Assembly: GCA_973895155.1 (NCBI GenBank)
Contig: OZ316893.1
Location: 5,904,171-5,968,170 of the forward strand
Origin: Marsupella aquatica
Taxonomy: Eukaryota; Plantae; Marchantiophyta
Length of the DNA: 64,000 nt
Reading direction: 5' to 3'
Every line of letters begins with the position of its first letter. Position 1 is the stretch's first letter. The position numbers and the translations under genes were made by a program. Of the stretch, positions 7,852 through 53,125 are shown piece after piece. The notes below the pieces were generated by a model, which saw only the letters and a program-made list of their open reading frames with translations, was not told the DNA's origin and ran no database searches.

Positions 7852-7898
7852 GCTTTTACCATGTAAACTGGCCTAGTGATTCCTAGCTAGGCATCATA

Positions 7899-11575: not shown

Positions 11576-12309
11576 CTCTGAATACAAGTTACTAGATATT
11601 CGTTTTAGAAATACTCACAACTTTAATTTAGTTAGCATAAAGAAAAATATTTTCGTGATTTATTTAAATAGGATAATCCGAACAGTTTTTTAGTCCCTTT
11701 TGAGTAAGGTTGCTTAAAGTTGGAGCACCCTTCATCAAGAGTCATGGGACAGTTACTTATTCTGGGGTCATCAAAAACAGATGAGCTGAAGTATCACGCA
11801 TGATCTCCTACATGTGTATTCCGTACAAGCCGGGCACACACGTAATAAATTGCTTTTTTACTTCAGATACTAATTTAATTTGTAAGCCGCCACCATGGAT
11901 CAATCTTAGCCTCAGTCCAACCATTTGAGTTATTTATGACCGCCCGATTCCCTCAGCAAGGGGGTAAATATAATTATTAAACTGGTAATGTGAATATTTT
12001 GGGAGTGACCTCGTTAAAAAATGGATATAATAAACTATGCTTGAATGATGACAAATGGATACAATAAACTATGCTTTAATGGCAATAAATAATCGCACGC
12101 GTCTCACAAAGAGGTGTGATTTGTGAAAGTCAATTTTTTTTCAAACTTGAAGGACCAGCCTAGAGCATCCCCTCAGCTTAGACTCCCAAGCTTGGTCTCG
12201 CCAGAATTCGACGACATATCTGGTCACAAATTTCCCGCTCCAGCTTCCTGAGCCGTGGTCAAGAGATCGCAGCAGAGCACACCGAGACAGACGAAGTGTG
12301 TCGCTAGCT

Positions 12310-15300
12310 ATGGATTCCAACCACAAAGATGAAGTTATCGAAAAAGATGGGGTTACTGCTAGCTTGTCATGGAAAGACTTGACAGTCGTGGTGAACAATC
12401 AAAAAACGGTTCTCCATGGACTGTCTGGCGTCGCGGAGCCCGGACGCCTTGTGGCCGTCATGGGACCATCTGGGAGTGGGAAGAGTACTCTACTCGATGC
12501 CCTTGCAGGTGAGTTGACACGAACGTGAAAGTGCCAGTCGGTTATTAGGAAGTAAGCAATCAATCTGCTGGAAAAATATCCATTGACCTTGTAGAGATAA
12601 GTTTCTTAATAACTTTTGGGCTGTTTTTTATGTACTCGAATACAATTGTATATTTGGTGATCGAGTGTTCAAATAGGGAGGCTTTCACGAGGTTCGACTG
12701 TATTTGGTGAAATTATGCTCAACGGACGAAGGGCACAACTTTCCTACGGCACAGCTGTAAGTATTTCTTGGCAGAGACCTTTCTAGCAACATGTGTGGAC
12801 TTCAGCAATACTTTGTAGTGTCTGATCGCGAAATGGGATTCATACCCAGTGTTTTAATTGTGCACATAGTCTGAACCCTCGGTAGACAATAAGCCTCTTG
12901 AGATCATTGGTAGCTGAAGATTTGCACTGGAATTGCTCTTTCCAGGCATACCTTGCACAAGAAGTTCCACTGCTGGGAACCCTGACGGTCTATGAGACTG
13001 TGTACTACTCCGCAATGCTGCGTTTCCCAGCCCTTATGCCACGCGAAACTGTGAAGAGAATCGTCGAGGCGACCATTGCCGAAGTGGGGCTCACGCGCTG
13101 TATTAACACTCTCATTGGTAACTGGCAAAGAAGAGGGTTAAGCGGAGGTGAAAAGAGACGTGTGAGCATTGCCATTGAATTGCTAACCGGCCCTCAGTTG
13201 CTCTTTTTGGACGAACCAACGAGTGGACTGGACAGGTAACAAGCTTCCTGGAAACTAATTCCAAAAATCTACATCGATCTAGTATGTATCCCACTAGACA
13301 TTTCAGCGACCACTGCCACATCAAAGGACTTCGGCAGTTGTGTTGTAAGCTCGTCAGTTATTGAAGACCTCTCTCGATTTTCTATATGTTGGATGCGTTT
13401 AGGAAATCTTAACCCAATGTTGAACAATTATGCATCTCAGTGCTTCAGCATACAACGTCGTCAGCACTCTCAAGAAACTGGCACGCGCTGGGAGGACTGT
13501 GGTTACTTCCATTCATCAACCCAGCAGTGAAGTTTTCAATATTTTTGACGATCTTTGCCTCCTTTCTACCGGCAACCAGGTGTTCTTCGGACCTCTTCAG
13601 AGCGCCCTTCAGGTACTTTCCGATTGCACTCTCGGTGGACTGAAGTCAGATTATCGTCTTGATGTGCTACTAGTTTTTTTGTGCTACTAGTTTTTTTTAG
13701 TGAAGGAGATTGAAGAACTGATCGAGAAAGACAAATAACTTGTACTCGTGGACCTGGCTTCCATGAATAAGAAGCTGAACAGGTGGGAATTAGTTGCGAG
13801 AGTTCTCTCCCTCCACAAATAATAGAATTTGTATGTTTACTTGAATCTGTATTAGAATGTTATTTTTCTCTCTGAGTCACTTTCTGCATCAATACAAAGT
13901 TAAGAACCACATTGAATTTCTTTCATTGTCCTTTTGTTGTTTGTGATTTATTGCTTAAGGTGTCCACTTATAATTGCCCATTTCACTTATTTGCTATTCA
14001 CTCTTTACAGAAATTGTTTTTTGTCCTTTTGGACTAAAGAAATAGGTTTTTTTTTGTTGGCCTTTTTTTATCTTTTGTTTTGTCTTTTATCTTTTGTTTT
14101 GTCTTGAACAGAAATGGGGAGGAAATACAATTAGACTCTTTTCACCCCAATGTGACACTTTTTCTGTAGGGAACCCAGACCAGAGTGAGCCCCAGAATCA
14201 GACAGGACCGCAAGTGGAAGGTAAGAGTATTAAATTAGGGCCACAAAGTAGGCAACCTGGGCCCCAACAAATAATCAGAATTCCAATCCACAATCAGACA
14301 GGGACCCCAAGTGGAAGGTAAGAGTATTAAATTAGGGCCACAAAGTAGGCAACCTGGGCCCCAACAAATAATCAGAATTCCAATCCACTACTCACAACCT
14401 GTGACAGCTCAGTTATGGGCAATCCTCTTAACAATCTCTTCTGACCAATTGGCCTAAGTTCCAGGCAAATCCCCTAGCCAATTCACCTAAACCACCTGTT
14501 AACGAAATAGGTTTTCATGCTTTATCCGAGGGAGGCTTTAAGTCAAACCTATTGAAGTTGTTATTTTTTGGCTAACAATCAAAACATCTAAAAGCAGATT
14601 CCTTTTGGGGGCGTATATTTTGCTACGGTAATATTAAAGTAGTTCACACATCGCCTACCTACCATACTCTTCCAGTACAGTCTACGTAACCAAGCTGTCC
14701 TAGGATTGAGGTTGTTCGGACAAAAGTTTGTTTAATTACTTTGTGCATTCTAGTCGAAGTTTTGCACTCAACTATTGTAGACCTCAAATCCAACTAGCTT
14801 AGGTCACTTGGCCAGGGGATTAACCTAGAAGAGCGAGGTACTAGGTTCAATGGCACTTCCTAAACAAGCGATGCGGAGGGTATTTGTCTGTCAATCGAGT
14901 ATACTGGTGGGAGTCTTTGTTACTCTGAGGCCCCTGGCTGCTCCACATATATTAGGGCCCACTCTGAGGCCCCTGGCTGCTCCACATATATTAGGGCCCT
15001 AGTTTATTAAGTAATTCTCTCTCCCTCCTCGTGTGGTTCTTACACAATTTACTCTATTGGTAATCAAAATCAAAATGTGCTAATATATGGTGTGTTTGGT
15101 AATCACACATCATGCTAATATATGCCTGGTGTGAAAGTCCTGAACTTTATCATGGTGTGGAGACATATATTGTACACCATATATATTACAGCAACTACCC
15201 TAATATATAATCTCAAGCTCCGGAGCAGAATATCTAGTATCTGCATTACTACCCTTCAGAATTGCATGCTTCGATGTGTCTATGAATTGGATGGGCCTAC

Positions 15301-18125
15301 TTGAGCTGTTCAAAGCCAAAAATAAGAATAGATCTTCAACGATAACTGGTTCGTTCTCATGCTATCCTTGCCCTGCAGTTCTTTTTGAATGCAGGCTTCC
15401 CCTGCCCACCTTTGCGGAATCCATCTGACCACTATCTCCTATCTATCAACTCCGACTTTGACGACCTGTACAATCCGTTCGGCGACCCTACGGCTGCGGA
15501 AGATGATCTCGAAAGTTCCAGGAATCTTCTCCCACGGATTACGGCAGCTCAAGTTGTCAAGACTTTGACGGAAGCATTTGCGGCGTCCAAAGAAAAACAG
15601 GACTTGGATTACAGCATCCAAGTGATGGAAACACTAGTAAGTACATATACATAAAACATACTTTATAGTGTTCTGTCAGTACGACGTCAGAAAATCTTGG
15701 AAATACTTCACGGAGACAAACCATGGTACTTCCTGAGAAAACCACGCTTTGTTCCAAAATGGTTAGTGCCAATTCAGGTCTTTAACTTACAGATGTCAAT
15801 TTGGTGTGCAATTTTCTAGGGCGGCCCTGATCTGCCTTCAAACGGGAGCAAGGCAGGCTTCCTCAAACAATCTTACATTCTCACAAAGAGGTCGTTTGTC
15901 AACATGAGCCGAGATTTGGGGTACTACTGGCTAAGACTCGTGATGTACATCATCTTGTCCCTTGCTGTTGGTACAATCTACTTCAAAGTCGGCTTCGAAT
16001 ACAGCGCAATCCAGGTAATTTATGAGCACGACGAGCCTAGCTTCAAATGTTTCTTAGCTTGAATTCCGTTATGCAGGTAGAGTCTTGTCGATGCACTATT
16101 TAAGTTCGATTCTCATTCATAGTATCATCTCAGACAGGTTTTAATGCACATATATATCACTTTGCGTTCTTCTACTTTCCGTGTTGCCTGTCACGTGAAA
16201 TTTGATCGGACAGCCTTGGTTGAAATTACTAGACTTAGCCTAGCTGTGCCAGCCTTCGACCTCAGCCTCAATCAACCAACCAACCATCGAGGTAGAGCAC
16301 TCCGGACACTCCTATAAGTCACATTCTCAACATTAGAGATCCCTGAAGAAAGTGTACGACAAATTCGTTGAATGAGAGAAGACGAATCATTGGTCACTTT
16401 ACGTACAGTCGATAGCACGTATATATGGGCCCAGGTCGCTAAAGCATCTGGACGAGATATGCTGACATTGCAGGCACGAGGAGGATGCGTGTCCTTCATT
16501 GTCGCCTTTTTGACTTTCATGGCAGTTGGAGGCTTTCCTTCTTTCATCGAAGATATGAAGGTACCGATTGGCGAAACTGCGCCCCATTATTGCATCCATT
16601 ATGAGATTCATAATTTGGCTACTGATCAAATTCCGGAAAGCCAATCCGAAAATGAGGATATCTGGTCTCGGTGCATATGATTTGAGGAATGATCTACATT
16701 TCTAGCGTTTTGTTTGCGAAGTCGAGTTTTGAGCTGTTATTTGTGATCTCCGACCTTTGTTTCTTACATATTTAGTATCTCGTTTGTTTTTTATTTTTGG
16801 GATCCCAGGTGTTCGGCATGGAAAGGTTTGTTGGCCACTACGGAGTGTTAGCCTTCGTGTTTGGAAACACTTTCTCGTCTATTCCGTTTCTGTTGCTAAT
16901 ATCTCTCATCTCCTCTATGATCGTCTACCTTTTGGCTGACCTCCACCATGGTTATCAGCATTTCTTCTATTTCGCACTCTCGCTGTTCGCATGCCTGTTA
17001 GTAGCAGAGAGCCTGATGATGGCAATTGCGAGCCTGGTGCCCAATTTTCTCATGGGAATCATCGTTGGAGCTGGAATACAGGTAATGTAATATTCTCGTT
17101 GTTTTCCAGTGTTTCTGGTCCAGAATAGTAATTACTGACCGTCGAATGTTGATGCACGTGTGTATCGTGTATCAATTCTACAGAGCCTGAAGAAATTGGA
17201 TCATTGTGATCTCAACGATCGCTTTTGAATTTACACTTGGAAATTAATGATTGCATCAATCTTGGACGAAAGGTAGCCAATGCGTAGCATTTTCATGCAA
17301 GTTGCATCCTTCACAAAAAAGAAGCGGCTTCAAATTGAATATAACGGCTGGCTGTCAACCTGGTGCGTCAACAAATGAATATGAGTGTTCAATGGTCAAC
17401 TGGTCGATCAATATATCCGACAGACTCGTGACGTGAGCATATGCTAACATTTTGATCAAGAGTTTTTGGATGTCGATCAGGGAATGTTCATCCTCGTGTC
17501 GGGTTTTTACCGACTACCCAATGACTTACCCAAACCCGTCTGGCGGTACCCATTGTCCTACATTGCCTTCCATCCTTACGCTTTTCAGGCAAGTACCTTA
17601 ATTACTAAATTCCGGATCTATTTTAAGTTTGCAAGTCCTAGAGCAGTGATTCCTCGACCAGCATCTAAGCTACTAATCTCTTGTTTTATGGAATTTGGAC
17701 ATCCTACAGCATTGATTGCTAGATTATAACGATTCCATTTCTTTTTAACCTACAGCTCAATGAAGGTTGTGTTTCAGTTTTCTGAACAACGAACTTGCAA
17801 ATATATGCTCGGCATGATTTATATGCAGGGTATGTTAGCGAACGATTTGAAGGGCCTGACCTTCCGGAACCAGAACCTGAGTGGGCGCGACCTCACAGGC
17901 GAGTCGCTCTTGCGCGCTGTTTTTGAAGTGGAGACGAGCCGGAGCAAGTGGGAGAATGTGATCATTCTGTTTGTGATGGCCATCGGGTACCGACTTGTGT
18001 TCTACATTCTCATCAGGGCTTCCGAGACTCTGATACCAACAGCTCGTTCATACGTGGCTAGGAAAATTCATCTCGAACGCTCACGTTCACAGGTTGAAGC
18101 ACGGGAAGGTCTTCTCACCGTTTAG
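12310..18125 (+). CDS. ABC transporter G family half-transporter, ABCG11/WBC11-like. Exons 12310-12508, 12677-12756, 12946-13235, 13441-13612, 15379-15636, 15820-16014, 16474-16560, 16809-17081, 17481-17588, 17829-18125
   Basis: Walker [10 protein letters not shown], signature [74 protein letters not shown]. Canonical splice sites plus one GC-AG intron; frame appears open. Confidence 0.95.
14196..14388. repeat. ~97-bp tandem duplication inside ABCG intron 4
   Basis: aatcagacagg...gaattccaatccac occurs twice, head to tail. Confidence 0.9.
14922..14999. repeat. 39-bp perfect tandem duplication inside ABCG intron 4
   Basis: actctgaggcccctggctgctccacatatattagggccc x2. Confidence 0.9.
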
Positions 18126-19494: not shown

Positions 19495-19790
19495 GGGTCT
19501 CACTATATGGGGACCTCCCTATCGCCTGCGACGTTTTTAGGCCTCGAACCCCCTAAAATGTAAGAAAAAAATTTTATTTTTTAACCCCTATAAAGTTGGA
19601 ATATTCTTGGAATATTCTAAAAAATGGATTAAAAAGACCCTAATGTTCTTATAAGTCTCAAAATTGAATTTAAAAGACCCTATTGTTCTTCTACAAAAAT
19701 TCTTAAGTCTTCCCTTAGAACCAATAAAATGACCCTATCCTTCGTCGCACGTGATATGCCATTTTTGTGGAAGTGAAACCCCCGAGTTTG
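19495..19790. repeat. Dispersed TE-terminal repeat; inverted homolog of 51820-52076
   Basis: tcactatatgg..cctccc..ccctaaaatgtaaga..aaaagacccta..ccaataaaatgaccctatc aligns with the reverse complement of 51820-52076. Confidence 0.8.
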
Positions 19791-21249: not shown

Positions 21250-24200
21250 TCTGTTACAATGGCAGCAGAGGCTGCTCGAATCAAGTTGGGAGAGCACTTC
21301 AATAGCTTTGAAGAGTTTGATCGGTGCCTAGATTCTCTGGCTGTGATGAATGGTCGAGCCATGTCCAGATACAAGACGTTTGCAAATTGATGTATTCGTG
21401 TATGCAGGTTTGGAAAGATTGCTAGATCGAAACAAGTAGTCGATGATGAGGCAGCTTGTGATGACCATGGTGACAATGACAGCATTGGTTCACGTGCTAC
21501 GGAGGAACCAAACCAGTGGCAGCTTCAATTTGAGGAAGATGATGAAGAGTCAGAAGGTGAGCATGAGTTTCATAGCAGATATGGCCATTGGAGTGGAAGA
21601 TGATTGAAAGGACCAAGGTCTCAGACATTGCAGCAAACTACACAACAAGAGAATAGATATTGCAGTCAAGCAGAGGTGTGTGCTACCGCTACCACTACCA
21701 CCAATGCCACCACCTTTTTTATTTTGGGACATCCTACAATCACTTGCTCAAATTCTTGGTGTGTACAATCATGGGGTTTTGCAGATTGAAGATCGTCAAT
21801 TTCATAATGCCATTAATCAGATCACTCTTGCTCGTCAGCAACCTCGTGCACCGCTTTCAGCAATTCAAGCAAACACCATGCAGACAAATGTGTCATTCTC
21901 TACACAACAATCCGTGTACCAAAATGCACCTATATCTGTACAACAAACTATGCACAGAAATACTGTTTTGTCTACACAAGGAAGAGTTGTGCACAACAGA
22001 CCAAAGTCCATAGTCCAACCCACTAGCATTTGGTTACCTGGTTCGCAACACCCACGTAAACCTGGTCAACAGAAAGCTAGGAAGCCATCTGCAACTGGAG
22101 CTTGTGGACAGTTGTCCAGATCTAAGCCCTCTCAACCAGGGCCAGAAGACTTGCTTTACTCAGAGGAGGAATGTCCTTTCAGAGTATGTTGCAGTAGAGT
22201 GAAGGGTGGGGGTCATATTATCACTGTCTGTGAACTAACACATACTTGTGCTGCTCACATTCACAAGCCCGGGTATGCAACTCCCCTTTTTATAAGGCAA
22301 GTTTTTAATTCCTTATAATGGCCTTATATTCAATTGACCATCTTAGATTTCATTTTAGTGTACTAAAGTCTTGTACCTCTCAACTCAAGGAATCCAAAAA
22401 TGTAACTTTAAATAAAAACCAAGCATGTTTTGATGTACAAATAGTTGATCAAAACCAAATTATATGGGTTTTTTTTAATACAGGGGTCTACAGCCAAACT
22501 AGCCAGCTTTTTAGGATTTTTATTAAAATTTTAAAAATCTTTTAATAAAAATTAAAACATGTATAGGAATATTTTTTAATTTCATATGGAAAAATAAGAA
22601 AACCAAACCTTTTATATGACTTGAAAATTTTTAAAAGTGGAAAACCCAGGTTTTTTCAAATTTTAATTATTTTGTATAGCCAACTTTTTAGTCCATATAA
22701 AAATGTAGACCCCTGTCTATTATATAAGAGTTGCGTACCCGGGTTCACAAGTGGAGAGCTCCTACTCACAAGTCTGCATGGTTGGGGGTAACATTGGCTC
22801 CAAGAATCATCTGAAATCTGAAAATGCCTGTGAAGGAATTGTTGTCTGGTTTCCAAGGTGACTACAAGCGAGGAAGTAACTACCAGAAAATGTGGCGGGG
22901 CAAAGATCTTGTAGGGCATTGGACCGCTGGCTCACAGAAATCATCTTTTCAGATGATCCCAGTATTGATTGACAGGATTCGGGAGACAGGCCCTGGCTGT
23001 GTTGCACATTGGTGCACTATGGAGGACTCCACCATTTTTTGTAGAGCATTCATATGTCCATCTGCCACCAGGAAAACACTTAACTATACTCAGCCGATGG
23101 TTAGTTTAGTTGCTTGTCACACCAAGAATAGAAAATATCCAACTCAACTGTTTTTAGCTACATGCCTGGATGGGAACTCAAACGGTGTCATACTTTGCTA
23201 TGGAGTAGCACCAGTTGAAAACACAGAGAACTGGCTTTGGTTTCTAGAATTAATGGACACAGCTGTATATGACATTGGTAGTCAAGACATTGTCATCATG
23301 TCAGATCGTCGGGTACGTCTCACTGCTGCTGTAAGTCAGATTTGGCCAGGTAACACCCTTCCACACTTAGATTGCTTAATTCTATCAAATTTGAGAGTTT
23401 TGATGATACAGTGCTACTTGGAGTACAAAATCTAATTTTTTATTTTTGGACGGTAGGAAAGATCCATGCACAGTGCGCAAATCATTTGAGGGCAAACGTG
23501 AAGACCAGGCATGGTAGAACAACAAGTGAATTCTTCTACGGATGTGTCTATGCCAATGATGTGCACTAGTAAGTAAATACACTCACTAGGACCAATATGA
23601 AAGCAATTTGCCTATTCAGACATTGTAATTGATGTATTCTATATATTTTGACATTGTGCTTGATGTATCTTGTCTTTGTAAACAGTGTCACTCATGTATA
23701 CTGTCTCTTTCAATTCAGATATGAGTCTGTGCTAGATTGACTGTCTGGTTCATTGCTAGCCGGCAAGGGAGTTGATGCAGCACATTACATCCGCGGTCTG
23801 GATGTGAAATGTTATGCCAGGCATGCATTCCCACTCCCTTGCATGGGTAAGGTCACAAGTAATCCAGCCGAGCAAGCAAATTCTGGATTATTACCATTCC
23901 GTCTGCTAGCACCTGGAAAGTTGTTGGTGGCTCTTTGGGTGTACATTCAACAAAAGTTTAAAGACAGGAGAATAGAGGTTGCATGCAGACAAGAACCACT
24001 GTCAAAACCAGCACAACTACGATACAATACCAACTTGCAGAACTTCCAACAATTCCAGGTGCAAATTGGCTTTTTCTTTTCCTTTTGTAACGAACATTTT
24101 GACCACATGTGGAGGATGGATTGTCTCACGCTTCATTTTTCATACTTTCATGCTACAGGTATTCAGTAATAGTCAATCCAGTGCCAAAATTCAGACTACA

Positions 24201-25086
24201 ACAGGGAGTGAGGAGTATCTTGTCACTTTGTCACCAAAACCAAAGTGCACCTGCATGGAGCTGCAGGAGATGGGTTGGCCATGCCAACATATGCTGGCAT
24301 GGGATGATGAAACAAGAAAGAATCCGGCTAGGCATTTTCATAAATGTTGGCGGACACAGTCTTTGGTTTTACTTTATGATGGTGTATTACCTAGATTTGT
24401 TTCCACTCACCTTCCATTGAGCTTAAGTTGTCATGCTCCAGAGCCTGCTGTAGTGAATGGGCGACATCGAATGGTAAGAATTCATGGGGAAACTTGTTCC
24501 AGGGCTTTAGGGAATGGGGAGGACCTCCATCTTGATCCAACAGGAAGGCTGTGTCTCAGATATCCAATGGATGATGACAATGAGAGAGGCATTCCGTTTC
24601 CAGGTGCAAACTCTGCGAGTGGCCTCCCAATGGTTGAGATCCTACCTAAGAAAAGGAAGCAGGGTAACGTAAAGTGTACGTGTAGCAGGTGCGGAAAGGT
24701 TGGCCACAACAAACGATCTTGCAAAGAAGTTTCAGTTGCCCAAGCAACTGAAGATGATGAGCAGGTACCAAATGTTATAATGTTGCAAGCCAGAGAAGGT
24801 CCATATAAAAGTCCTAGTTTCATAAGAATTTGTTTACTTATTCTAGTGTTATTGTAATGCGCAGGTGGAAGGGGAAGAGCATGACAATGTGAACAATGCT
24901 GGAGAAAGTGAGTGGCTTGTCACCGTTGGAGCACCAACAATAGGCAGTGGTACTATGCCTTCCAATCCACGCATTCAAAACTCCTTGGATTATGAGTGGG
25001 CCCGGTGCATCACTGAACTTGCTGAAGAAGCTGCTGATAATTGCCCTTATTTTGGGCTACCTCATGAAGTAGATATCACAGAATAG
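21250..25086 (+). pseudogene. MULE/MuDRA-like transposase with introns, SWIM and CCHC zinc fingers, disrupted
   Basis: CPFRV..HTC; FCRAFI..ATCLDGN..ENTENWLWFL..IMSDR; HAQCANHL; TSNPAEQANS; CTCMELQEMGWPCQH; CSRCGKVGHNKRSC. Stops, a MITE insertion, and the first catalytic Asp position reads V (SLVAC). 5' boundary approximate. Confidence 0.9.
22268..22743. mobile_element. hAT-type MITE (476 bp) inserted in the MULE transposase
   Basis: TIRs CCCGGGTATGCAACTC / GAGTTGCGTACCCGGG; exact 8-bp TSD TTCACAAG (22260-22267, 22744-22751). Confidence 0.92.
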
Positions 25087-25365
25087 ACATATACATCACA
25101 GTCTACTATTCACTATATTGGGAAGTTAGATGGTAGTAGGGCTCATTTGTGCATGGACCTAAACACTACCTTGAATGAGTTCAAATTGTTACAAAGTGGA
25201 TGTTGTATTCCATCCAATGAGGAGTGAAGCCTTTTATTTGCAATTGTTAGGTCTGAGTACGCCTTCCATGGTGCATGTGCTGTATGATTATTAAAGTGTT
25301 GAATATGGCATGCTCTTTTCCATTTAGTCCCGACTGTCTTTGTAAAGTTCAAGTGAAACATTTTT

Positions 25366-25676
25366 TTTCCAAGTGTGAAATCTGAATACAACGTCCAAAG
25401 TGTATACATGAAAAAGGTATTTCTATGTTGAAACTCCATAGGTTTTGTCCATTTGGGCAGGCTTCGGTGGAGGCCGTGTTCGTAAAGTCGGAGGGACAAT
25501 TGTTTTTCCAAGTGTGAAATCTGAATACAACGTCCAAATCGTATACATGGAAAAGGGTTTTCTGTGTTCAAATTCCGTAGGTTTTGTCCATTTGGGCAGG
25601 CTTCGGCGGAGGCCGTGTTCGTAAAGTCGGAGGGGAGGGACAATTGTTTTTCCAAGTGTGAAATCTGAATACAACG
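25366..25676. repeat. 144/139-bp tandem array, left part
   Basis: tccaagtgtgaaatc.gaatacaacgtcc... recurs at 25368, 25507 and 25651; the third unit is cut by the TG...CA element. Confidence 0.95.
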
Positions 25677-28600
25677 TGTAGTTTGCTATGAAGAACCAAA
25701 AACACACTTAAAGGTCTTCAAACTCGGTATTCGTTCCCGTAAGGAACAAGATGGGGTTGGTTTGATAGATTTAAACAATAATAAAGAACTAAAAATGTTT
25801 TTCACACATAGTAATCAAGTTTGATTACTTCACTAAGGTATTTTGAAGATCGCTCCACAGCGGTGAGTAGTTTTCAATGATAACTCAGCATCAGGTAACC
25901 ATAAATTAATGAAAAGGAAATGATTAACAAAACACAAGAGAAAATAATCTCAAAGTACGCTAAGGGAGTTTGGAATAGACCAAGGTTACTCCTTAGACAT
26001 AAGTCAAAATGAAAAGACTTAAGGATACAAATCCATATTGTTTTTCAGATCTAAACTGTTTACTAGAGTACCTTTTAAAATGCCGTCAACATGTCTTATC
26101 CTTTCTTTCTAAGTGGTACTCAGATAAGATCTAAAAGGTAGCTACTTCAACATTTAGATGGTACTAAGCAACATGAAAGAAAATCCATCAATTTCAAATA
26201 AGACTTAAACTCAGTGAGTTAACTTCAAGAACTCAAGAGATTGTAATGAATCACCAAAAAGGAATCTATCATTACAACTCAAAAGATTTGCACAAAAGGA
26301 ATTTTACTTCCTATGATTTATTCAAAGGATTAAACCACAAGAAGGAGGAAAAGTCTTCTCCTGGTGTCAAGCTTGATCTCAAACTCTTAACATTCATGAT
26401 CAACTGGCAGAACACCAAGGAAAGGCAAAAATTGCTAGACTTTACCATAAACTACACTAGTGGTGGAGGGGTCTTATAGTAAAAATCTACAGAGTAAGAG
26501 GTCATAGGGTCGAAGAGACATGCCTCTTCATACTCCTCAAAAAGTCAAAATAGCAATTCAGTAAGTGAAAAGCTCGGAAATGGCTAAGTAAGAACCCGTA
26601 AACCCTTAAAAGCGTAAAAGCGTAAAAACGTATAAGCGTAAAAGCGTAAAGGCGTAATCCGGTAAATGCGGTAGACTTAAAGACTTAGCAAATTCAACTA
26701 TTTTTAACTTTCTACTCCTGGCTCGGAAAATTCTGAAATTTTGCCAGCAGGTTTTCCTAGGTACAGACTTCCTATTGAAGAAGTCTCATAGCTTTTAAAG
26801 CTCTATAACACATTTTGAAAAATAGGGAAAAATGCACTATTCTTAAAACTTAACTAAAAAGACTTAGACTACTCCTCAAGCTTGTTGTCGGATGTCTTCT
26901 GGTTCGAGTAGCTCCACGAGGGTAACAGTCCGAGCTTGAGTAACTTCCATCAGCTCAGCCTGGCATGGGGATCCTTGAGAGTAGGGTAGGCATCTCAATT
27001 GCCTTTCAGGATACATCAGGGGCATTCTTCTCCTTAGATAACATATGTCTATTCGAAGAGCTTCTCTATATATCCCAATCACGTCATAATTATTGCAAGT
27101 AGCAGCATATACTTGGGGATAATGGTATAGAAATTCATCAGAGTTCAGCATCCTGGAATAGAAAGGGTGAAGCCTCCATTTGACATCTCTGAAATACCGG
27201 TTGAAGTTGGCCAGAGTTTGAGAGGTGACATTGTTCCAGATCCTCTGTTTCTTAGCAAATGAGCTGGTTGAAACAAGGGTAACCTTGGGCTCTCGAGGAA
27301 GGTAAGCGTTCTTGGGAGAAGTAGATTTCTTACTCTGCATGAGAAAAGAAACCACAAAATCTAGGGCATAAGCTGCCAAATTTCCAAAATATGCCAGAAC
27401 TAAATCCTCCACCTCCACCTCCACATCTCCTTGAAGTAGCATCACAGCAAGAATGGGTCGGAAATAGAGAGAGTCAGTCCAGAACTCATCGAATTGTGCC
27501 ATCTCCAGTCTGGAAGTTCCAAAACACCTGAGGTCGAAGATATAACTGGCTTCTGTCTTCTTGAGATAGTAGTATTTCCAGAACTCTCCAACCGGTGGTC
27601 TATTGGCTTGCATTATCTTACAGGTCTCCACATACCTGTGCACTTGGGACTCTGGATGTCTCGGGTATCTACTCTCGATGGTGGCATTCCGAGGTGTCTG
27701 AGTAGATGAGGTGACAATTGCTACTAAGTTTGGATTGGATCTTAAGGCAATATCAACATCTTCAAATCCCTGCCTTGGGGATGACTCAAGAGAATTATCA
27801 TAAGATCTATAAGTTTCACCATCTGAGGGTGGATCAGAGTCTTCAGGTAGATCTTCTCTATCATAAGGGTGGTCATATTGTGACCGATTGTAGGTGGGTC
27901 CTTCTGTGGGTTCGTAGTTGGAATCAAGGCTGTAAGGTTGCGAACCTGGGCTAGGAGTAGGACTAGCAGTTGGACATTGTTGGATCAAGTTGCGGACCAC
28001 AGATGCTATCTGTCGAGGGTCACACTGTGGTATTTCTAACAAGTCATCCACAATGGCCACACAACTGGTACTATCTGCTTGTGGAACAGATTCACTTGTT
28101 TCTAGGGGAGGGGGCTGTATAGTGACAGGAGTGCAGATCACAAACTCCATTGGTGCTGGTTCTCTTGGGGAAGAGGTCATTCTGACAGGACTTAGCTGGT
28201 CATGAAATGGTGATCTCAAACTAACAGCCTCCATTCTCAAATTATTAACAGCATCATATAGTCCATCATCACTGCAACTGAGGAGAGATGTCAACTTATC
28301 AATAAGCTGCTGATTCAACTCTGCCTTCGAAGGAGTGGACCTGGTGGTCTGATGGGGAGTAGCATCAGTTGGTGTAGCAACATTGTCTTGTTGATGAATG
28401 CTCCTTACTTCTTCAGCTTCTAGTGGATCTGCATCCATAGTCCGGCTAGGGAAATTCTCATTACTTATTGGATGACAAACAACTTCCCTGTTATGCATAG
28501 GAGAATGTGTAGGAACTTCTAATGAAGCATCCTCCATAGGAACATCAGCATTCTCCTCAACGTTCTGATCATTCGAATTCAAAGGGGTGACATGTACAAT

Positions 28601-29704
28601 GTCATCCATAGGAATTTCTTCTTCAATACCCAGGTCAATTAGGAGTAACCCCCTCTCTGTCTCTTCCTCCAGATATAAACAGTCATGGGTATAATAGAGC
28701 TGAGAGAGATAATTCTGTAAGCAAGTGGTCCTCCCCGCTTCCAAGCTCTTTACTTGATCCTTCATTACATTAAACATAAGTAGGGCCCAATTTACTTTTA
28801 TAGCTCCACTGTGAGCAGCTACAATGGTGTTAGCCAAGGCCATAGGACAGAGAGTTGGCTTTTTCGGATGAAGAATGGGTACCAGGAATTCCATGAGCAC
28901 TCTCAATTCAGGATAAGTACACTGGGACAAGTTCCAGCCATTTTTGAGATTTCGAGTTCCTGAAAAGTATGGAGTAGATAAGTCCTGCTTCTTGGAATAT
29001 AACGCCTCTCCTTCTGACGGGCATCCAAAGGCGTAAGCAATTTGCTCAACAGTCCACAGGCTGGGGCAAGCTCGAATCGTTCACCTGAATTCAATTGGAA
29101 TGATAGTCCCCTTTACAAAATCCTGTAAGTATGAGTCGAGCTCGATATTCCAGGGAATCTTGAGTAAGCGTTCCAATCATAAGTGCTGTAAAGAGTCTTG
29201 TAAATTAGAAAGACTATCAGGCGCTCGTGGTATACGAGCTGCCACTACTTTTGAGACTGCTGGAGCTTTAATTTGATACTGTTTCTCAGCACCCAGGTTC
29301 GCCATAGCTGCGACGGTGATTTGCGTGCTGCAAAGGTTGCTTTTGAACAGAAAGAGCTAGTGAATAGGGGTGGTGAAAATACAGGAGTGAGCGCCTGAAC
29401 TCTCTGCTTGATTCCTATCAAGGTATGAAGTCCCCAATCCGTTTCTAAGTCCCGTTGCGAAGTTAGCCGTAGCGCCGTAACGTACACTTTCCTTAAACGC
29501 ATAAGGTGTAGGCCGTAACCCCGTATCGGCGTAAACCCATAAACCCGTAAACCCATAACGCTTATACGCGTAAATGCGTAATTCCGTTATAAAGTATACC
29601 CGTAGTTTACACTTGGCATTTTAACAGCAACAGCAGGCTTAAACACTGTAAAAAGTTTAAATTTTTCAGTAATTTCAGGTTTTGGGTATTACCCAATACT
29701 CACA
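25677..29704 (-). mobile_element. 4.0-kb TG...CA element (giant solo-LTR-like) with internal ORF
   Basis: Termini TGTAG...CTCACA; exact 5-bp TSD CAACG (25672-25676, 29705-29709); removal restores a satellite unit; no gag/pol and no internal LTR pair. Confidence 0.9.
26876..29305 (-). pseudogene. LTR-borne protein family ORF (684-aa open part 26876-28930, N-terminus disrupted)
   Basis: LERLLKIPW ... NGWNLSQCTYPELRVLMEFLVPILHPKKPT..VNWALL..YLSQLY; homologous to 48672-50332. Confidence 0.75.
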
Positions 29705-30595
29705 CAACGTCCACATTGTATACATGAAAAAGGGTTTTATGTGTTCAAATTCCGTAGGTTTTGTCCATTTGGGCAGGCTTCGGCGGAGGCCGTGTTCGTA
29801 AAGTCGGAGGGGAGGGACAATTGTTATTCCAAGTGTGAAATCGGAATACAACGTCCACATTGTATACATGAAAAAGGGTTTTCTGTGTTCAAATTCTGCA
29901 GGTTTTGTCCATTTGGGCAGGCTTCGGCGGAGGCCGTGTTCGTAAAGTCGGAGGGGAGGGACAATTGTTTTTCCAAGTGTGAAATCGGAATACAACGTCC
30001 ACATTGTATACATGAAAAAGGGTTTTCTTTGTTCAAATTCCGCAGGTTTTGTCCATTTGGGTAGGCTTCGGCGGAGGCCGTGTTCGTAAAGTCGGAGGGG
30101 AGGGATAATTGTTTTTCCAAGTGTGAAATTGGAATACAACGTCCACATTGTATACATGAAAAAGGGTTTTCTTTGTTCAAATTCCGTAGGTTTTGTCCAT
30201 TTGGGCAGGCTTCGGCGGAGGCCGTGTTCGTAAAGTCAGAGGGGAGGGACAATTGTTTTTCCAATTGTGAAATCGGAATACAACGTCCACATTGTATACA
30301 TGAAAAAGGGTTTTTGTGTTCAAATTTTGTAGGTTTTGTCCATTTGGGCAGGCTTCGGCGGAGGCCGTGTTCATAAAGTCGGAGGGGAGGGACAATATTT
30401 TTTTCCAAGTGTGAAATCTGAATACAATGTCCAAAGTGTATACATGAAAAAGGTATTTCTATGTTGAAACTCCATAGGTTTTGTCCATTTGGGTAGGCTT
30501 CAGCGGAGGGCATGTTTGTAAAGTCGGAGGGACAATTTTTTTTCCAAGTGTGAAATCTGAATACAACGTCCAAATCGTATACATGAAAAAGGGTC
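29705..30595. repeat. 144-bp tandem array, right part (~6 units)
   Basis: Unit starts at 29828, 29972, 30116, 30260, 30404 and 30543. Confidence 0.95.
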
Positions 30596-38692: not shown

Positions 38693-39379
38693 ATCGCTAC
38701 GAGGAAACTCACAGCCCTAATGTTGTCGGGTGACAATGTGAGAGCACTCTACCTGAGCACGCACTGCCTTGCAACGGTAAACCCTACAAGTAAACCTGCA
38801 CCGACTGGGACACAAAACGCAACATTTGATATGTTGTTCTCGATGTTTGACCGGACTAAGGAAGGCATCCAATGCAAGGTAGTGTAAAATAACATTCCTG
38901 TGCAAAGGGCCACGATTGCATGAGGGGATGATTATAGATGCTACATAGACGGTCCAGATGTTGTGATCCTATCCCTCATCAAAAGACTTGGGAGACCCTT
39001 AGGAAAGGGGGGGGCATGTGCACCCTAAACCATTACTCATTATGACCCCCAAAACATATAAATACATACAAGGGGGAGCTTATTGATTGATGAGGTCTTG
39101 GGGGCGAGCTTGGGGGTATGTTTAGAAGGATTTCATTCAAACATAATTGTGGACTGACTTAGTCTAATTTTAACACTTCACCCTAAACCCTGCCCCTTTA
39201 TGAACATAATTATGCATGTTCCGTCGTACACCCTAAATATATATATCATTGTTTTGTGTATGTAACTCATGGTCGGCTCCTACCATCAATATGGCGGAAT
39301 ACGTCATCAAGGGGTGTAATGAGTCATATTGTGTGTGGCTTACATGATTGTTGCATTGACATCAATGACCATTTTTGTA

Positions 39380-42300
39380 AGTCGTACAACTTGGGAGTGT
39401 TTTGCCCAAAGTTGAGTGATGCCCTTCCATGATGCAGAATGTGCGTGTTAAAAAGTGTTGTGGAAGCCAACTGGCATAACTAGTGGCCGAGGGTTGTCAA
39501 ATACCCCATTCCGCACCATGTGGAGTGGGTAGCATCCCTAATGGCCGGCTACAATCACGGATATTGCAAATTAGCCCCCGAAACTCCCAACGGGTCATAT
39601 TGTCCATGGCATGCTTGACTGCCGCATTGACATCATCCTATGACTCTATAAATGACGAAAATATTCAATCACTTGCATAAATGAAGCAAAATCCCTTGAA
39701 AATGACAAAATATGAGTGGTTTGCACCCCTTTGGGCAAATGACTTGAAAGTCGTACAACTTGGGAGTGTTTTGCCCAAAGTTGGGTGATGCCCTATCATT
39801 GTGCAAAAGTTTGGTCATAAAACTATTGCTTTGCCAATTAGTGATAACTAGTGGCCCAGGATTGAGGGGCACCCTATCCCACACCATGTGGAGTGGGTAG
39901 CATGCTCAATGACGGGCCCCTATCACCAACAATGGCCGATCAGCGGCCTGAGTTCCAGAAGAGTCATATTGTCCATGGCATGCATGACTGCTACATTGAC
40001 ATGAACAATGACTTGTTTCCGTGTCATTTGAATAAATGACATATCCTAGCACTCATAAAATGACCAACACAATGACTCACAGGCACAATTGACTGAAAAT
40101 GGCTTGGGAATGACCATATGGGAGTGATTTGGACCCCTTTGGACAAATGACTCCAAAGTCATACAACTTGGGAGAGTTTTGCCCAAAGTTGGGCCATGCC
40201 CTTCCATGATGCAAAATGTGTGTGTTAAAAAGTGTTGTGGAGGCCAAGTGGCATAACTAGTGGCCCAGGGTTGGTGAGGGTAGGGGTTGGTGAGTACCCT
40301 GTGGCACACCATGTGGAGTGGGTAGCATCCCTAATGGCCGGCTACAATCATGGATATGGCCAGTCGACCCCCGGAGGCCCCAAAGAATCATATTGTCCAT
40401 GGCATGCATGACTGCAACAGTGACATCATGAATGACCTATTTTTGTGTCATTTGCATGAATGACGTCTCCCAACACTCCCTAAATGACACAAACCCTTAG
40501 TCACGTGCACAAATGACTCTAGATCCCTTGCCAATGACGAACAATAGTGGTTTGCACCCCTTTGGGCAAATGACTCCAAAGTCATACAACTTGGGAGTGT
40601 TTTGCCCAAAGTTGGGTGATGCCCTTCCGCAATGTAAAATGTGTGTTTTAAAAAGTGTTGTGGAGGCCAAATGGCATAACTAGTGGCTGAGGGTGTACGA
40701 GTACCCCATCCCGCATCATGTGGAGTGGGTAGCATCCCTAATGGCCGGCTACGATCGCGTATATTGCGAATAAGCCCCCAAAGGCCCCAAGGAGTCATAT
40801 TGTCCATGGCATGCTTGACTGCCGCATTGACATCATCAATGACTTATTTTTGTGTCATTTGCTTAAATGACACCCATTGGCACTCCACAAATGACAAAAA
40901 CCTTTAGTCACACACACAAATGACTCAAGATCCCTTGCAAATGACCAAATTAGAATGATTGGCACGCTTTGGGCAAATGACTCCAAAGTCATACAACTTG
41001 GGAGTGTTTTGCCCAAAGTTGGGTGATGCCCTTCCATGATGCAAAATGTGTGTTTTAAAAAGTGTTGTGGAGGCCAAGTGGCATAACTAGTGGCTCAGGG
41101 TGTACAAGTACTCCATCCCGCACCATGTGGAGTGGGTAGCATCCCTAATGGCCGGCTACGATCGCGTATATTGCGAATAAGCCCCCAAAGGCCCCAAGGA
41201 GTCATATTGTCCATGGCATGCTTGACTGCCGCATTGACATCATCAATGACTTATTTTTGTGTCATTTGCTTAAATGACACCCCTCGGCACTCCACAAATG
41301 ACAAAAACCTTTAGTCACACACACAAATGACTCAAGATCCCTTGCAAATGACCAAATTAGAATGATTTGCACCCCTTTGGGCAACTGACTCCAAAGTCAT
41401 ACAACTTGGGAGTGTTTTGCCCAAAGTTGGGTGATGCCCTTCCATGATGCAAAATGTGTGTTTTAAAAAGTGTTGTGGAGGCCAAGTGGCATAACTAGTG
41501 GCTCAGGGTGTACAAGTACTCCATTCCGCACCATGTGGAGTGGGTAGCATCCCTAATGGCCAGCTACGATCGCGTATATTGCGAATAAGCCCCCAAAGGC
41601 CCCAAGGAGTCATATTGTCCATGGCATGCTTGACTGCCGCATTGACATCATCAATGACTTATTTTTGTGTCATTTGCTTAAATGACACCCATTGGCACTC
41701 CACAAATGACAAAAACCTTTAGTCACACACACAAATGACTCAAGATCCCTTGCAAATGACCAAATTAGAATGATTGGCACGCTTTGGGCAAATGACTCCA
41801 AAGTCATACAACTTGGGAGTGTTTTGCCCAAAGTTGGGTGATGCCCTCCATGATGCAAAATGTGTGTTTTAAAAAGTGTTGTGGAGGCCAAGTGGCATAA
41901 CTAGTGGCTCAGGGTGTACAAGTACTCCATCCCGCACCATGTGGAGTGGGTAGCATCCCTAATGGCCGGCTACGATCGCGTATATTGCGAATAAGCCCCC
42001 AAAGGCCCCAAGGAGTCATATTGTCCATGGCATGCTTGACTGCCGCATTGACATCAAAAATGACTTATTTTTGTGTCATTTGCTTAAATGACACCCATTG
42101 GCACTCCACAAATGACAGAAACCTTTAGTCACACACACAAATGACTCAAGATCCCTTGCAAATGACCAAATTAGAATGATTGGCACGCTTTGGGCAAATG
42201 ACTCCAAAGTCATACAACTTGGGAGTGTTTTGCCCAAAGTTGGGTGATGCCCTTCCATGATGCAAAATGTGTGTTTTAAAAAGTGTTGTGGAGGCCAAGT

Positions 42301-42870
42301 GGCATAACTAGTGGCTCAGGGTGTACAAGTACTCCATCCCGCACCATGTGGAGTGGGTAGCATCCCTAATGGCCGGCTACGATCGCGTATATTGCGAATA
42401 AGCCCCCAAAGGCCCCAAGGAGTCATATTGTCCATGGCATGCTTGACTGCCGCATTGACATCATCAATGACTTATTTTTGTGTCATTTGCTTAAATGACA
42501 CCCATTGGCACTCCACAAATGACAAAAACCTTTAGTCACATGCACAAATGACTCAAGATCCCTTGCAAATGACCAAATTAGAATGATTTGCACCCCTTTG
42601 GGCAAATGACTCCAACGTCATACAACTTGGGAGTGTTTTGCCCAAAGTTGGGTGATGCCCTTCCACGATGCAAAATGTGTATTTTAAAAAGTGTTGTGGA
42701 GGCCAAGTGGCATAACTAGTGGCCCAGGGTTGTCAAGTACCCTACCCCGCACCATGTGAAGTGGGTATCATCCTTAATGGCCGGCCCCTATCACCAATGG
42801 GGTCAATCAGCCACCAAAGGCTCTTAAGAGTAATATTCTGCATGGCATACATGACCACAACATTGACATC
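39380..42870. repeat. ~407-bp tandem satellite, ~8.5 units
   Basis: tacaacttgggagtgttttgcccaaagttgg recurs; equivalent ORFs start at 40683, 41090, 41498, 41904 and 42311 (period 406-408). Confidence 0.97.
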
Positions 42871-43419
42871 CCAAATGACATTTGCATAAATGACATCTAG
42901 CGGCACTTGTCAAATGACTAGAAAGTTGAGTGAAAGCAAAAATGATTGGGAATCCTTTGCAAATAACATGAATAATATATTGAAAAAAATGACATGAGAA
43001 AATATAGGCATGTAGTACCTAAATTCTAAACCTTAAACCCTAGACCTATGCTAGAGAGTGTTATTTGGCAACCTTGCATGCCCCCATATATACTCAAACA
43101 TGTGAAATGTGAATACAGCTTAAGGAATGTAAACACTTCAGGAGTCCTTGGCATATATAGGAAAGATGTAATGAATGGGTGCAAGTATATATTTAAATGT
43201 ACATACTTATTAGAGATTATCAAGCCTTTAAGTTGTACATCAATTTAATGATGAGACTCACAACAAAAGAAGGCTTGTTAGGTCTCTAAATGTATTTCAA
43301 ATCTAATATGTGAGTGCCACTAGTCTTTATATATACTACCATACATTTTGGATGACTAATCATACCCTAAACCCTAAAACATATACTAAACCATAAACCT
43401 CAAAATAGTCATATGTTGT

Positions 43420-47601: not shown

Positions 47602-50600
47602 TGTAGCAAGGTGATAAAGAGATAAATGACTATTTACTCCTTAACAACTCAATTTCGTTCCCGTTAGGAGTGGATAAGATCGAAAAGACTGAATTAACAC
47701 AATTTGAGAAGTTTACACCAACATTCTTAGGTTGGAGAGATTTCTAATGATCTCCTTAACATAAGTGTTTAACCACAAACTCAAGTGGGTAATCCTTAGG
47801 ATTCACAGTGCAATAATAAAGACTAGAATTAACAAAGATTGAAACTAGAGAGAGAGTAGATAGGAGTTTTCAAAGTGCAAGAGAATTGAATTTCTGACCA
47901 TCACCACTCCTTCAATAAGGATTATGGCCTAATTTAAGATTCAGAAATCAACATTTTCTATGCTTTTTGATTTCTCGTAGCAACTCTTCTCCATCTCTTG
48001 AATTTAGAAGACAACAATATAAATCAACCCGAGACACTTTTCTGGTCTTGCTTAAGACAGTACTAGGATACTCGAATTGGTTTACTTCTCCTACAATCCT
48101 TAAGATTGCTTGTTTGAGTTTTGTGTAAATGTTAATTTCCTCTTTGGTGAATCTTCCAAATGTGTTGATCACAAATCTCATTGATCTTTCAATATCATTA
48201 AGGCACACTCTAGCATTCATTGAACACTTCACAACAACTCAAGGGTTGCTAAACTTCTTCCTTTTACTCAACCATGGTAAAAAGAAGGGAAGAAAAGACA
48301 TAGATTCCTTCAAAGGCAATGAGGAAATCAAATGTATATTTTCTCTCTCTCCTCCGGGTTGACTTTGGGTTCTCCTCCTTTTGTACTAAAAGTGGAGATT
48401 ATGAAAAGACATGCCTTTTCAAAACCCAAGTCTAAAGAAGTATGTAAATAAAAGTAAACTATCCTAGTCAAAAATAGAGTAGAGACTACAATGGATATAT
48501 CAACAAAATGCTGGAGTCTACTTACTCATATACTAGTCTACATAGCCATTTCTAGGTTTAAACTAATGTGGCTCTAACTCTCTAAATATAGTTCTATTCA
48601 GGTCCTATCTTCTGGGAAGGATCCTCCTCAGGGTTGGCCATGGCAAGGGGTTCTGGCCGAAGGTAAACTCCCTACTGGCCAGTGGTAAAAGGGATGGACG
48701 GGTCAATATCCATGTTCTCCTGATGGGCACTTGGGTCATGAGAATAGGTGTAAGAATGAGAGTGGAAGTGGGTACTAGGAGTGGGGAAACCAGGAGGGTT
48801 GAGGGGTGATGAGGGGCCAGTGGAATAGACTCCTTCATGAGGACTAGGAGAGAAAGATCTGGTAGTAAAGGGAGGAATCTCAGTATTAGCTAATAGCTCC
48901 TCTGTAGTCAAGTCACTCATCTCCCTTAAGGCTTCACAGGTCTTTGAGAGGCCTGTAAGTGCATCATCCACCTTGGTACTCACATCTACCACTAAATGGT
49001 TAATCTTGGAGAAAAGGATGGGTGTGGTGTTCTTGGCCAAATACTCATCATAAATCTGGCCCTTAAGAAGATCCAGAGAAGCTATCTTAGTCAAAGGTTC
49101 AACCAGATCCAAAGATTGAGTGATACTGAGTTGGAGAGTATGCTCAAGCTCATTCTTCTGCTTACTCCTTTCCAACTGTTGTTTGAGTTCAGATACCTTC
49201 TTCTTGAGAAACTCATTCTCCTTCTCCAACTTCCTCTTATCTGTGGCATCACTCATGGTAGAGATCTTCTCAAGAATCTGCCCTGGTTTCACTCCTAGCT
49301 TCTGTGAAATGTCGGTGATGACCTTCTCCATCACAATGGTCTTCCTCTTCACCTTCTGGAACGTGTCTGAGATGATCTGGAAATCAGCTAGGGTTTCTTG
49401 GGAGGCATGGCCGGGTGCATCCGGAAATTCATCCGGGTCGACGAAGGCCGGGTCGGAAAAGTCCGGGTCGAGGTTCCGGGTAGCAGACCCGGTCTTTCGA
49501 GGATTTGTCTCTGCTGGTTCCTCATCCTCACTGTCATCAGAGGTGGCCTGGGTGATATCTGGATCTGTCTCTCCATACTTGATGAAGTTGTACTTGGCCA
49601 ATAGTAATTTCTTCTCCTCTCTGAACAAAACTCCTTCAAAGCTATATAGATGTACCAGGTAGCAGGATAGGGGAGTAGGACTCTTGTTGGATAGGTTCTG
49701 TACCAACTTCCTTATCAAATCAAAGATAAGCTTAGCCCAGTTGACTTTTCTTTCTCCCTTGTAAGCAGCAACAATGGTAGAGCCAACTCCAACAGTAACT
49801 CTTCTTGGCTTCTCAGGGTACAGCAGGGGTAGCAGAAAGCTGAAGACTCGTCTCAGATCAGGATCCAAACACTTAGAAACATTGAACCCGCCCTTACTGT
49901 TGATGGCTCCTTTGAAGTAAGGGAGGATCAGATTGACAGCTCTCCCCACTGGACCTTCTCCTTCATCTTCCAATACAAAAGCTCCTGCAATCATCATCTG
50001 AGTCCATCGCTCAGGTCGGCCTCTGGAGGTATCCTTAAACTCAACCGGACACTCCTTCGGATCTCTCTGATCATATCTTTGCTTTGATAACTCCAGGGTA
50101 GCTCCATCAGAGACTCACAGCCCATCCTGAGCAAAGACTCCCTCAGTTTGACCTTCTCAGCTTCACTGTTCGGAATAGCTGGCCTCAGAATTTTCATGGC
50201 AATAGGGACCTCCTTTCTCTTCAATCGTCTCACAGGGGCTTTAACCGGAGTAGGTGCAGGTGATGTTGAGGTTGAATGCCCCTTAGAGACGCGAGAAGTG
50301 GACATTCCGGCTGGATCCGTCCTTTGCTCCATAGGACTTATCAAAGCAGCAAATGGATTCCCAATAAATGGCCTGCCTCCTTGTCGGCGAGCTCTACAAT
50401 GTTGCTACTTCGGAATGGTAAATTGTTTCGGTGTCGACCAATGGTAGAAATGTCCGGGTCGACCTGGCTACGGCATTTTTGATCAACTGACAAGCGCTTC
50501 TGGAAACTTTGATCAAGATTTTGTCAACCACAATGCAGGGTCATCTATCGTGGGGAAAATCGGGACTCAATCGGGCCTGCAATGGTGATGTTCGGGTCGA

Positions 50601-51201
50601 CCTGGCCTTCCTTCTCATCATCGATGTATGCACGATCAGAATCTCAAACTTCCTGCCTTCACTCCCAGCGGCGGAGTAGGCATTCCCCTCACAACGAATC
50701 AGTCAGTACCCTCATATCCAGGCTCTCATCAAGAAATTCAAGATTGGTCCTATAATCCGGATCCAAGATCCTCTACCAAAAGGGTAGAGCCTCCTCACTC
50801 TACTGCTTAAACAGCCTAATGCGCTCGGGAACTCAAAACCTACTAAGTTCGGCTTTGAGAGGTGTGAGAGGCCGGATCGACTCTCCTTCCTTATATCCGG
50901 ATTCTGCTGTGGTCGTGCCTATGTTTGACTTATGGTTTTAAAAACTTTGGCAATGGGTAGCTGTTGTTGAGTAGAGTCTCGGTATAAGCTTTATATCTCA
51001 TTCCAGGCTTATAACAAAAAGTTCCGGGTTGATCCTCCTTCTCTAATATCAATCCGGGTTGACCTCAGATGGGCTTGAAAGTCTCATAACACTTCAAAGT
51101 AGTCTTTAGGTCCCTCTTTAGCCTCATTTGAGATCTTAAACTTAAAAATTCGAAAATTTATGGCTAGTTAACCCTTCCTTCATAAACATCCTTATCTCAC
51201 A
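47602..51201 (-). mobile_element. 3.6-kb TG...CA element (giant solo-LTR-like) with internal ORF
   Basis: Termini TGTAG...CTCACA, the same as element 25677-29704; exact TSD TTCAT (47597-47601, 51202-51206); shared subterminal ttcgttcccgt(a/t)agga. Confidence 0.9.
48672..50332 (-). pseudogene. LTR-borne protein family ORF (one apparent frameshift near 50000-50060)
   Basis: MGCESLMELPWS / GGFNVSKCLDPDLRRVFSFLLPLLYPEKPRRVT..VNWAKLI..SCYLVHLY followed by acidic and coiled-coil regions. Confidence 0.8.
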
Positions 51202-53039: not shown

Positions 53040-53125
53040 AAAGTGCCAAGTGGCAAAAGCGTAGTGCAACGGGTGGCACTTTGCAGCATGCAAAATGTAG
53101 TGATCAGAACTTGTGACACGTGTAA
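53040..53125 (+). promoter_or_regulatory. Putative ABA/dehydration-type promoter motifs (ABRE/G-box GACACGTG, RY-like CATGCA)
   Basis: gacacgtg at ~53115 and gcatgca at ~53086, upstream of the LEA-like ORF; short motifs could occur by chance. Confidence 0.35.

Follow-up and report, generated by a model that had tools for sequence, protein, structure and literature searches.

A 4-kb TG...CA insertion in Marsupella aquatica: a putative solo long terminal repeat that may carry a gene for a VANC-like protein

How can a transposon act against the silencing of its own copies? In VANDAL transposons, which are Mutator-like elements (MULEs), the proteins VANC21 and VANC6 are reported to bind different short motifs that stand in tandem in the non-coding parts of their own elements (PMC5735166), and the two are reported to cause a family-specific loss of methylation (PMC5735166). 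The protein MAIN is described as a structural homolog of VANC (PMC13547354), and MAIN/MAIL proteins are reported to act against Polycomb silencing via DNA motifs (bioRxiv 10.1101/2024.09.27.615353). Here we describe a 4028-bp unit (unit 1; 25677..29704, minus strand) in 64,000 nucleotides of Marsupella aquatica (Marchantiophyta; contig OZ316893.1, positions 5,904,171 to 5,968,170), a stretch referred to below as the window. Unit 1 may be a solo long terminal repeat (LTR) whose putative U3 (unique 3') region contains a gene of 809 codons, predicted to encode a VANC-like anti-silencing DNA-binding factor, a combined reading for which we find the case evenly balanced.

Genes inside LTRs are described for retroviruses of the mouse mammary tumour virus (MMTV) type, whose sag gene lies mostly within U3 and persists in solo LTRs; according to PMC4667437, no other retroviral gene was present on 490 of 527 contigs with sag. 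In plants, LTRs are regarded as non-coding sequence, and PMC7264820 leaves open what the widespread Athila/Transposase_32-type accessory open reading frames (ORFs) do. Plant accessory ORFs are placed internally, before or after gag-pol (PMC7264820; PMC6317226), and one such ORF of Athila is reported to be partly similar to PF20167 (PMC11728184). For non-chromovirus Ty3/gypsy elements, LTRs of up to ~5 kb and target-site duplications (TSDs) of 4-5 bp are given (PMC6317226). A literature search with narrow phrases and incomplete coverage found no plant example of a U3 gene persisting in solo LTRs.

Unit 1 as an integrase-type insertion

The first-pass annotation of this DNA had reported a 4028-bp unit with TGTAG...CTCACA ends and an exact CAACG TSD, and both hold. 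In the sense of the ORF the unit reads TGTGAG...CTACA, and the 5-bp word CAACG stands on the plus strand on either side (25672..25676 and 29705..29709). The insertion target is a 144-bp satellite (left part 25360..25676, right part 29705..30594, plus strand), whose tandem array is interrupted by unit 1; the empty target is visible at seven of the eight TACAACG satellite sites between 25300 and 30650. Could such ends arise by chance? A window-wide scan of 713 candidate TGTAG/CTCACA pairs found two with a 5-bp duplication against ~0.7 expected, and taken alone the terminal words and the duplication could be explained in this way. What makes unit 1 real is the conjunction of a split satellite with empty sites, a multicopy left boundary and a homologous ORF in the second match of the scan (unit 2). 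Unit 1 is a real multicopy insertion of integrase type. The TG...CA ends with a TSD of 4-6 bp that are expected of a solo LTR are present in unit 1 and likewise in unit 2.

The multicopy boundary was seen by mapping four public sequencing runs (X1, X2, X3 and X5). In all four the depth steps up at 25676/25677 (from 161 to 63,545 in X1, from 65 to 23,821 in X2, from 0 to 2,972 in X3 and from 0 to 81 in X5), summed depths that are a sign of many copies and give no copy number. Loose ends with mixed flanks start at the same position (agreement 0.45-0.65, five multi-contig rows). As expected of a solo LTR, the left end is thus multicopy, with the same terminus at unrelated sites, in 4/4 runs; the multicopy boundary evidence concerns this end, and no loose end at 29704, the right end, is among the matches listed. 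All 30 bins of unit 1 are covered in every run and listed pieces at 26683-26953 bridge the ORF stop in X1 and X2; no single contig of the four runs spans the whole unit. One X1 contig, with a depth of 812 (~14x that of single-locus flank contigs), runs 15 letters beyond the terminus of unit 1. It mismatches at 10 of 64 positions and resembles what a shared primer-binding site (PBS) junction would give; the loose-end consensus at this terminus holds no PBS.

Does unit 1 contain the remains of an internal region? No terminal direct repeat was found: against the remainder of the unit, the longest word shared by the first 120 nt is 9 nt, and the last 300 nt give the same length. The sole internal similarity is that between two TTACG arrays (77% over 53 bp); the DNA that precedes them shows no similarity beyond that of shuffled sequence, 56 of 500 shuffles aligning as well. 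No sequence resembling a PBS or polypurine tract (PPT) was seen by eye next to the ends, and the 734-aa open part of the ORF has no Pfam match at E up to 1, hence no reverse transcriptase, integrase or gag. The first-pass annotation had noticed no internal direct repeat, PBS/PPT pair or reverse transcriptase, which these results bear out. It had also named short direct repeats at both ends as the finding that would speak against a gene inside the LTR; they were looked for and none was found, so that reading survives. Two terminal direct repeats with a PBS and PPT inside, as in a terminal-repeat retrotransposon in miniature (TRIM), a large retrotransposon derivative (LARD) or an internally deleted element, do not occur in unit 1. 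Nor does unit 1 look like a CACTA element, with TGTAG/CTCACA in place of CACTA/G termini, a 5-bp in place of a 3-bp TSD and no transposase match, and it holds no MULE transposase or terminal inverted repeats. A solo LTR is favoured because a single deletion in a two-LTR element that keeps internal DNA leaves a whole LTR and a partial LTR, and with them a direct repeat, and neither unit has one.

Unit 2 (47602..51201, 3600 bp, minus strand, TGTAG...CTCACA) is flanked by the TSD TTCAT at 47597-47601 and 51202-51206 and has no terminal repeat. Its ORF of ~550 codons (48672..50332, minus strand, start approximate) contains one frameshift near 50051. The N-terminal domain (N-domain) of its product is homologous to that of unit 1 (tblastn 42% over 144 aa, E 4e-31; profile matches too), the ORF scores E 0.16 against PF20167, and the C-terminal part differs from that of unit 1 and is partly coiled-coil-like. 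The two units have next to no other DNA in common (24 of 200 shuffles align equally well), with the exception of an 18-bp palindrome and a 15-bp motif. Unit 2 is another family with the anatomy of unit 1. Its neighbours are a decayed RNase H end at ~46700-46930, which has no Pfam match and which we take to be copia-like from its motif, and a purine tract with TGTTG after it at ~51450-51480; the surroundings of unit 2 are likely the 3' non-coding portion of a Ty1/copia element. On either side of unit 2 there is a tandem repeat of 22 bp.

The palindrome, with a CATG centre and no strand, lies at 26512..26529 in unit 1, 853 nt from the TGTAG end, and recurs with a compensatory change at 48403..48420 in unit 2, 819 nt from the putative 3' end. 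In the runs, an island of ~64 bp around it is kept in diverged relatives, with loose ends at 26487 in all four runs and at 26550 in at least two of the four. A TATA-like box and then a pyrimidine patch (26468..26479, minus strand) stand ~0.8 kb from the putative 3' end of unit 1, ~35-45 nt past the palindrome in the ORF sense and 0.4 kb after the stop; a weaker TATA-like word occupies the corresponding place in unit 2. The 15-bp motif (25730..25744, minus strand), a candidate element of the unique 5' region (U5), is 68 nt from the putative 3' end in unit 1 and 67 nt in unit 2. Judging from plant LTR anatomy, the box and pyrimidines presumably form the core promoter, followed by ~0.8 kb of repeat region and U5 (R-U5); with R-U5 behind the promoter, the ORF of unit 1 would therefore lie in U3. 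We infer both the orientation of unit 1 and this U3 position from sequence features.

The ORF, its flanking arrays and its homologs

The ORF of unit 1 (26876..29305, minus strand; ATG at 29305, stop at 26876) has 809 codons, makes up 60% of the unit and contains no frameshift. Two in-frame TGA codons interrupt it, at codons 43 and 75 (29177-29179 and 29081-29083), in agreement with the single minus-strand ORF of originally ~800 aa reported earlier. With two stops near the start, this copy probably makes no full protein; intact 808-aa homologs are P0001, P0154 and P0155. The N-domain (~aa 10-225; 28631..29278, minus strand) is 76% identical to that of P0001 and Transposase_32-like (ESM Atlas 0.91), and its fold is predicted to be VANC21-like, a moderate match at 9-11% identity. 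When PF03078, PF20167, PF10536 and PF04195 were considered, PF20167 reached E 0.005 in one of 88 homologs, and the unit 1 ORF itself has no Pfam match. The C-terminal helical domain (~aa 545-800; 26906..27670, minus strand) is conserved (74% identical to P0001), and no known family or fold match was found for it. Its family occurs without the N-domain in 13 proteins (P0006, P0009, P0013, P0021 and others), some of them possibly fragments.

The ORF is bracketed by two arrays of six TTACG copies each, on the minus strand, one upstream (29476..29581, mostly in 8-bp register) and one downstream (26597..26657, 8-bp register), both candidate binding sites. They account for 12 of the 14 TTACG words of unit 1, on one strand only, before the start and after the stop. 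TTTACGC is observed six times against 0.23 expected, a count that none of 300 shuffles reaches. Other elements have enriched words as well, each containing CG: CGGGTTGA and ATCCGG in unit 2, ATCCGG in the homologous locus L005, and TCGCAA in L006, where it occurs 13 times upstream of the ORF against 0.64 expected. These words were picked after inspection, and the shuffle counts are descriptive and no proof. As in VANC systems, a short family-specific motif is repeated in tandem within the non-coding sequence of its own element, and the arrays are candidate targets. The N-domain is predicted to bind the 8-bp TTTACG arrays next to the two putative promoters, for which we see about as much reason as against. 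The suggestion that anti-silencing would be self-directed comes from the analogy with VANC and MAIN/MAIL.

In which other contexts is the N-domain found? Eight metagenome loci with homologs were examined. At five of them CACTAC stands ~0.8 kb before the ORF (L001, L002 and L004, which are one site, L003, and L006; three distinct insertion sites), and L006 has a convergent piece of a DUF4216 transposase (E 2e-6, just under the curated cut-off). These five loci are CACTA elements in which the N-domain gene comes as the first ORF, and the encoded N-domains are 34-43% identical to P0001; the L006 element starts at ~9175, and a TCGCAA-rich subterminal region is present in these elements. L007 overlaps L006 and L008 is a fragment. 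L005, a 2678-bp contig that stops short of any fixable terminus, has an intact 572-aa N-domain frame at 538-2256 with ATCCGG-rich DNA on either side and then a TATA-like box, in the order seen in unit 1. The CACTA loci share with unit 1 the homologous N-domain and a CG-containing enriched word upstream, but differ in their CACTAC start and, in L006, DUF4216, where unit 1 is bounded by TG...CA and a 5-bp TSD and lacks a transposase. In a quick tree of 119 of the 151 domain-bearing rows, selected by length, the unit 1 family and the L006 protein fall into one 17-row branch with unit 2 outside it (Shimodaira-Hasegawa-like approximate likelihood-ratio test, SH-aLRT, 100). The N-domain gene seems, from such sequence comparisons, to have been exchanged between transposon classes, and the U3 gene may have come from a CACTA element. 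The window itself contains a CACTA remnant (2870-9000; DUF4218 and DUF4216 on the plus strand, 75% DNA identity to L006/L007), whose minus-strand ORFs at 2.9-7.4 kb include a weak N-domain profile match at 6582-6758 (independent E value 1.7e-4).

Proposed mechanism and rival explanations

We propose that a full element that had such an LTR at each end inserted into the 144-bp satellite, which would have made the CAACG duplication, and that LTR-LTR recombination then deleted gag-pol and left a single 4028-bp LTR, a history that we consider probable for what we infer to be an LTR. Every round of reverse transcription would place a copy of the U3 gene in both LTRs, and the gene would need an upstream promoter of its own. 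Its VANC-like protein would bind the TTTACG arrays of its own family and counter the family's silencing. That the protein works like VANC, although it is no member of the VANC family as defined, is a suggestion we rate at best evenly balanced and perhaps a little below. More tentatively, and by analogy, binding to the arrays may remove or block silencing marks in cis and on other copies of the family, intact solo LTRs serving as extra sources of the protein. It is unlikely, on our present estimate, that a group of plant LTR retrotransposons brought a VANC-fold anti-silencing gene, exchanged with CACTA elements, into U3 along with the arrays it binds. Every LTR, solo or not, would then be a gene-plus-target module that keeps its family active in trans; LTR-LTR recombination, the host's chief removal route, would leave a counter-defence gene behind, and protein and motif would have diverged between families as they did in VANDALs.

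The placement of the gene inside the LTR, proposed in the first-pass annotation, stands as the best reading in view of the missing terminal repeats, the second unit and the U3-like position of the ORF. Two observations call for caution. The N-domain also occurs inside CACTA elements, so it is by itself no LTR marker and no proof of LTR status, and in one run's variant a TATA is readable on the opposite strand, which bears on the orientation. A solo LTR might also encode a protein with another role, one that tethers the integration complex to chromatin or organises the LTR promoter, for example, with the TTTACG arrays as host-factor sites. A common fold shows no function, the match to VANC is moderate, a host protein, MAIN, is reported with the same fold (PMC13547354), the functions of plant accessory ORFs are described as undetermined (PMC7264820), and the conserved C-terminal domain found no counterpart. 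However, the characterised fold relatives VANC and MAIN/MAIL are reported to oppose silencing via short DNA motifs (PMC5735166; bioRxiv 10.1101/2024.09.27.615353), and an enriched word of its own was seen in every one of the four elements examined; we regard a role outside anti-silencing as a serious if unlikely alternative.

Was unit 1 ever the LTR of a gag-pol element? A stand-alone non-autonomous 4-kb unit with integrase-type ends, mobilised in trans by an integrase or a DDE transposase, would agree with the TSD-flanked units being single in both window cases, and with the N-domain clustering with a CACTA-borne homolog and not with unit 2 in the quick tree (SH-aLRT 100). The contigs with the five P0001-cluster members (3376-3869 bp), each shorter than unit 1, also fit, but a repeated LTR would give short contigs equally. 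Moreover, the terminal inverted match amounts to a few bases, TG...CA with a 5-bp TSD suits LTR integrases, for which PMC6317226 gives TSDs of 4 or 5 bp, the promoter-like and U5-like features appear to stand at LTR-typical places, and one multicopy contig extends beyond the terminus, all of which makes such a unit improbable. It is very improbable that unit 1 is what rearrangement has left of an ordinary element, with a once internal accessory ORF and ends from two LTRs: accessory ORFs are usually internal (PMC7264820), the TTACG arrays are alike and no contig spans the whole unit, but there is no repeat outside the arrays, two unrelated units are built alike, and the bins are fully covered in every run, with pieces bridging the ORF stop. 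Hardly credible, finally, is the idea that a permuted (split-LTR) element left unit 1 behind as its A-B portion, in which the centre of the palindrome, between CA and TG, would be the true LTR-LTR junction. The CATG centre and the retention of the palindrome in both units suit this idea; yet contigs of diverged relatives traverse the palindrome and break ~20-25 nt past it on either side, neither a loose end at its centre nor a head-to-tail joint is among the matches listed, and the implied U3 would be shorter than 100 bp.

Elsewhere in the window, an intron-split ABC transporter gene at ~12150-18100 (ABC_tran and ABC2_membrane matches) is apparently an ABCG host gene and marks the host as a land plant, and a broken MULE transposase with a SWIM domain lies at 22815-24857. 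A 344-aa minus-strand frame (55509-56543) has the pattern R..R...GHHS....RY, which we take to recall a tyrosine recombinase (Crypton-like), and no Pfam match at E up to 1. An array of 407-bp tandem units (39375-42967) holds ~7.6-8.8 copies, and old dispersed repeats pair 53039-53474 with 63481-63952 (direct, 69%) and 19496-19786 with 51818-52077 (inverted, 71%).

Comparison with known systems

Since the gene lies in a putative LTR, its product has a predicted VANC-like fold and the candidate arrays are within a few hundred bases of it, one 4-kb fragment is enough to put the anti-silencing idea to the test. If the proposed reading is true, solo LTRs are not always inert. Such solo units are liable to be annotated as host genes.

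How does unit 1 compare with what has been described? Like the MMTV-type betaretroviruses, it would hold a protein gene in U3 that survives in solo LTRs, but those are animal retroviruses with an unrelated superantigen, whereas unit 1 is a plant sequence of putative LTR status whose 809-codon gene is predicted to encode a DNA-binding protein. With Athila, Ogre and Retand, whose extra ORFs belong to PF03078, PF20167, PF10536 and PF04195, it shares an accessory ORF with a Transposase_32-like domain, and LTRs of up to ~5 kb and 5-bp TSDs occur in these lineages. Their ORFs are described as internal, whereas that of unit 1 fills 60% of a TSD-flanked unit, has an extra C-terminal domain and falls below every Pfam cut-off. 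VANC of VANDAL and the host plant mobile domain (PMD) proteins MAIN/MAIL are 9-11% identical to the unit 1 N-domain; the VANC motif is YAGTATTAY, as opposed to the TTTACG unit here, and unit 1 is no VANDAL or MULE element. Were the proposed reading true, VANC-type counter-defence would extend beyond MULEs to LTR elements and CACTAs.
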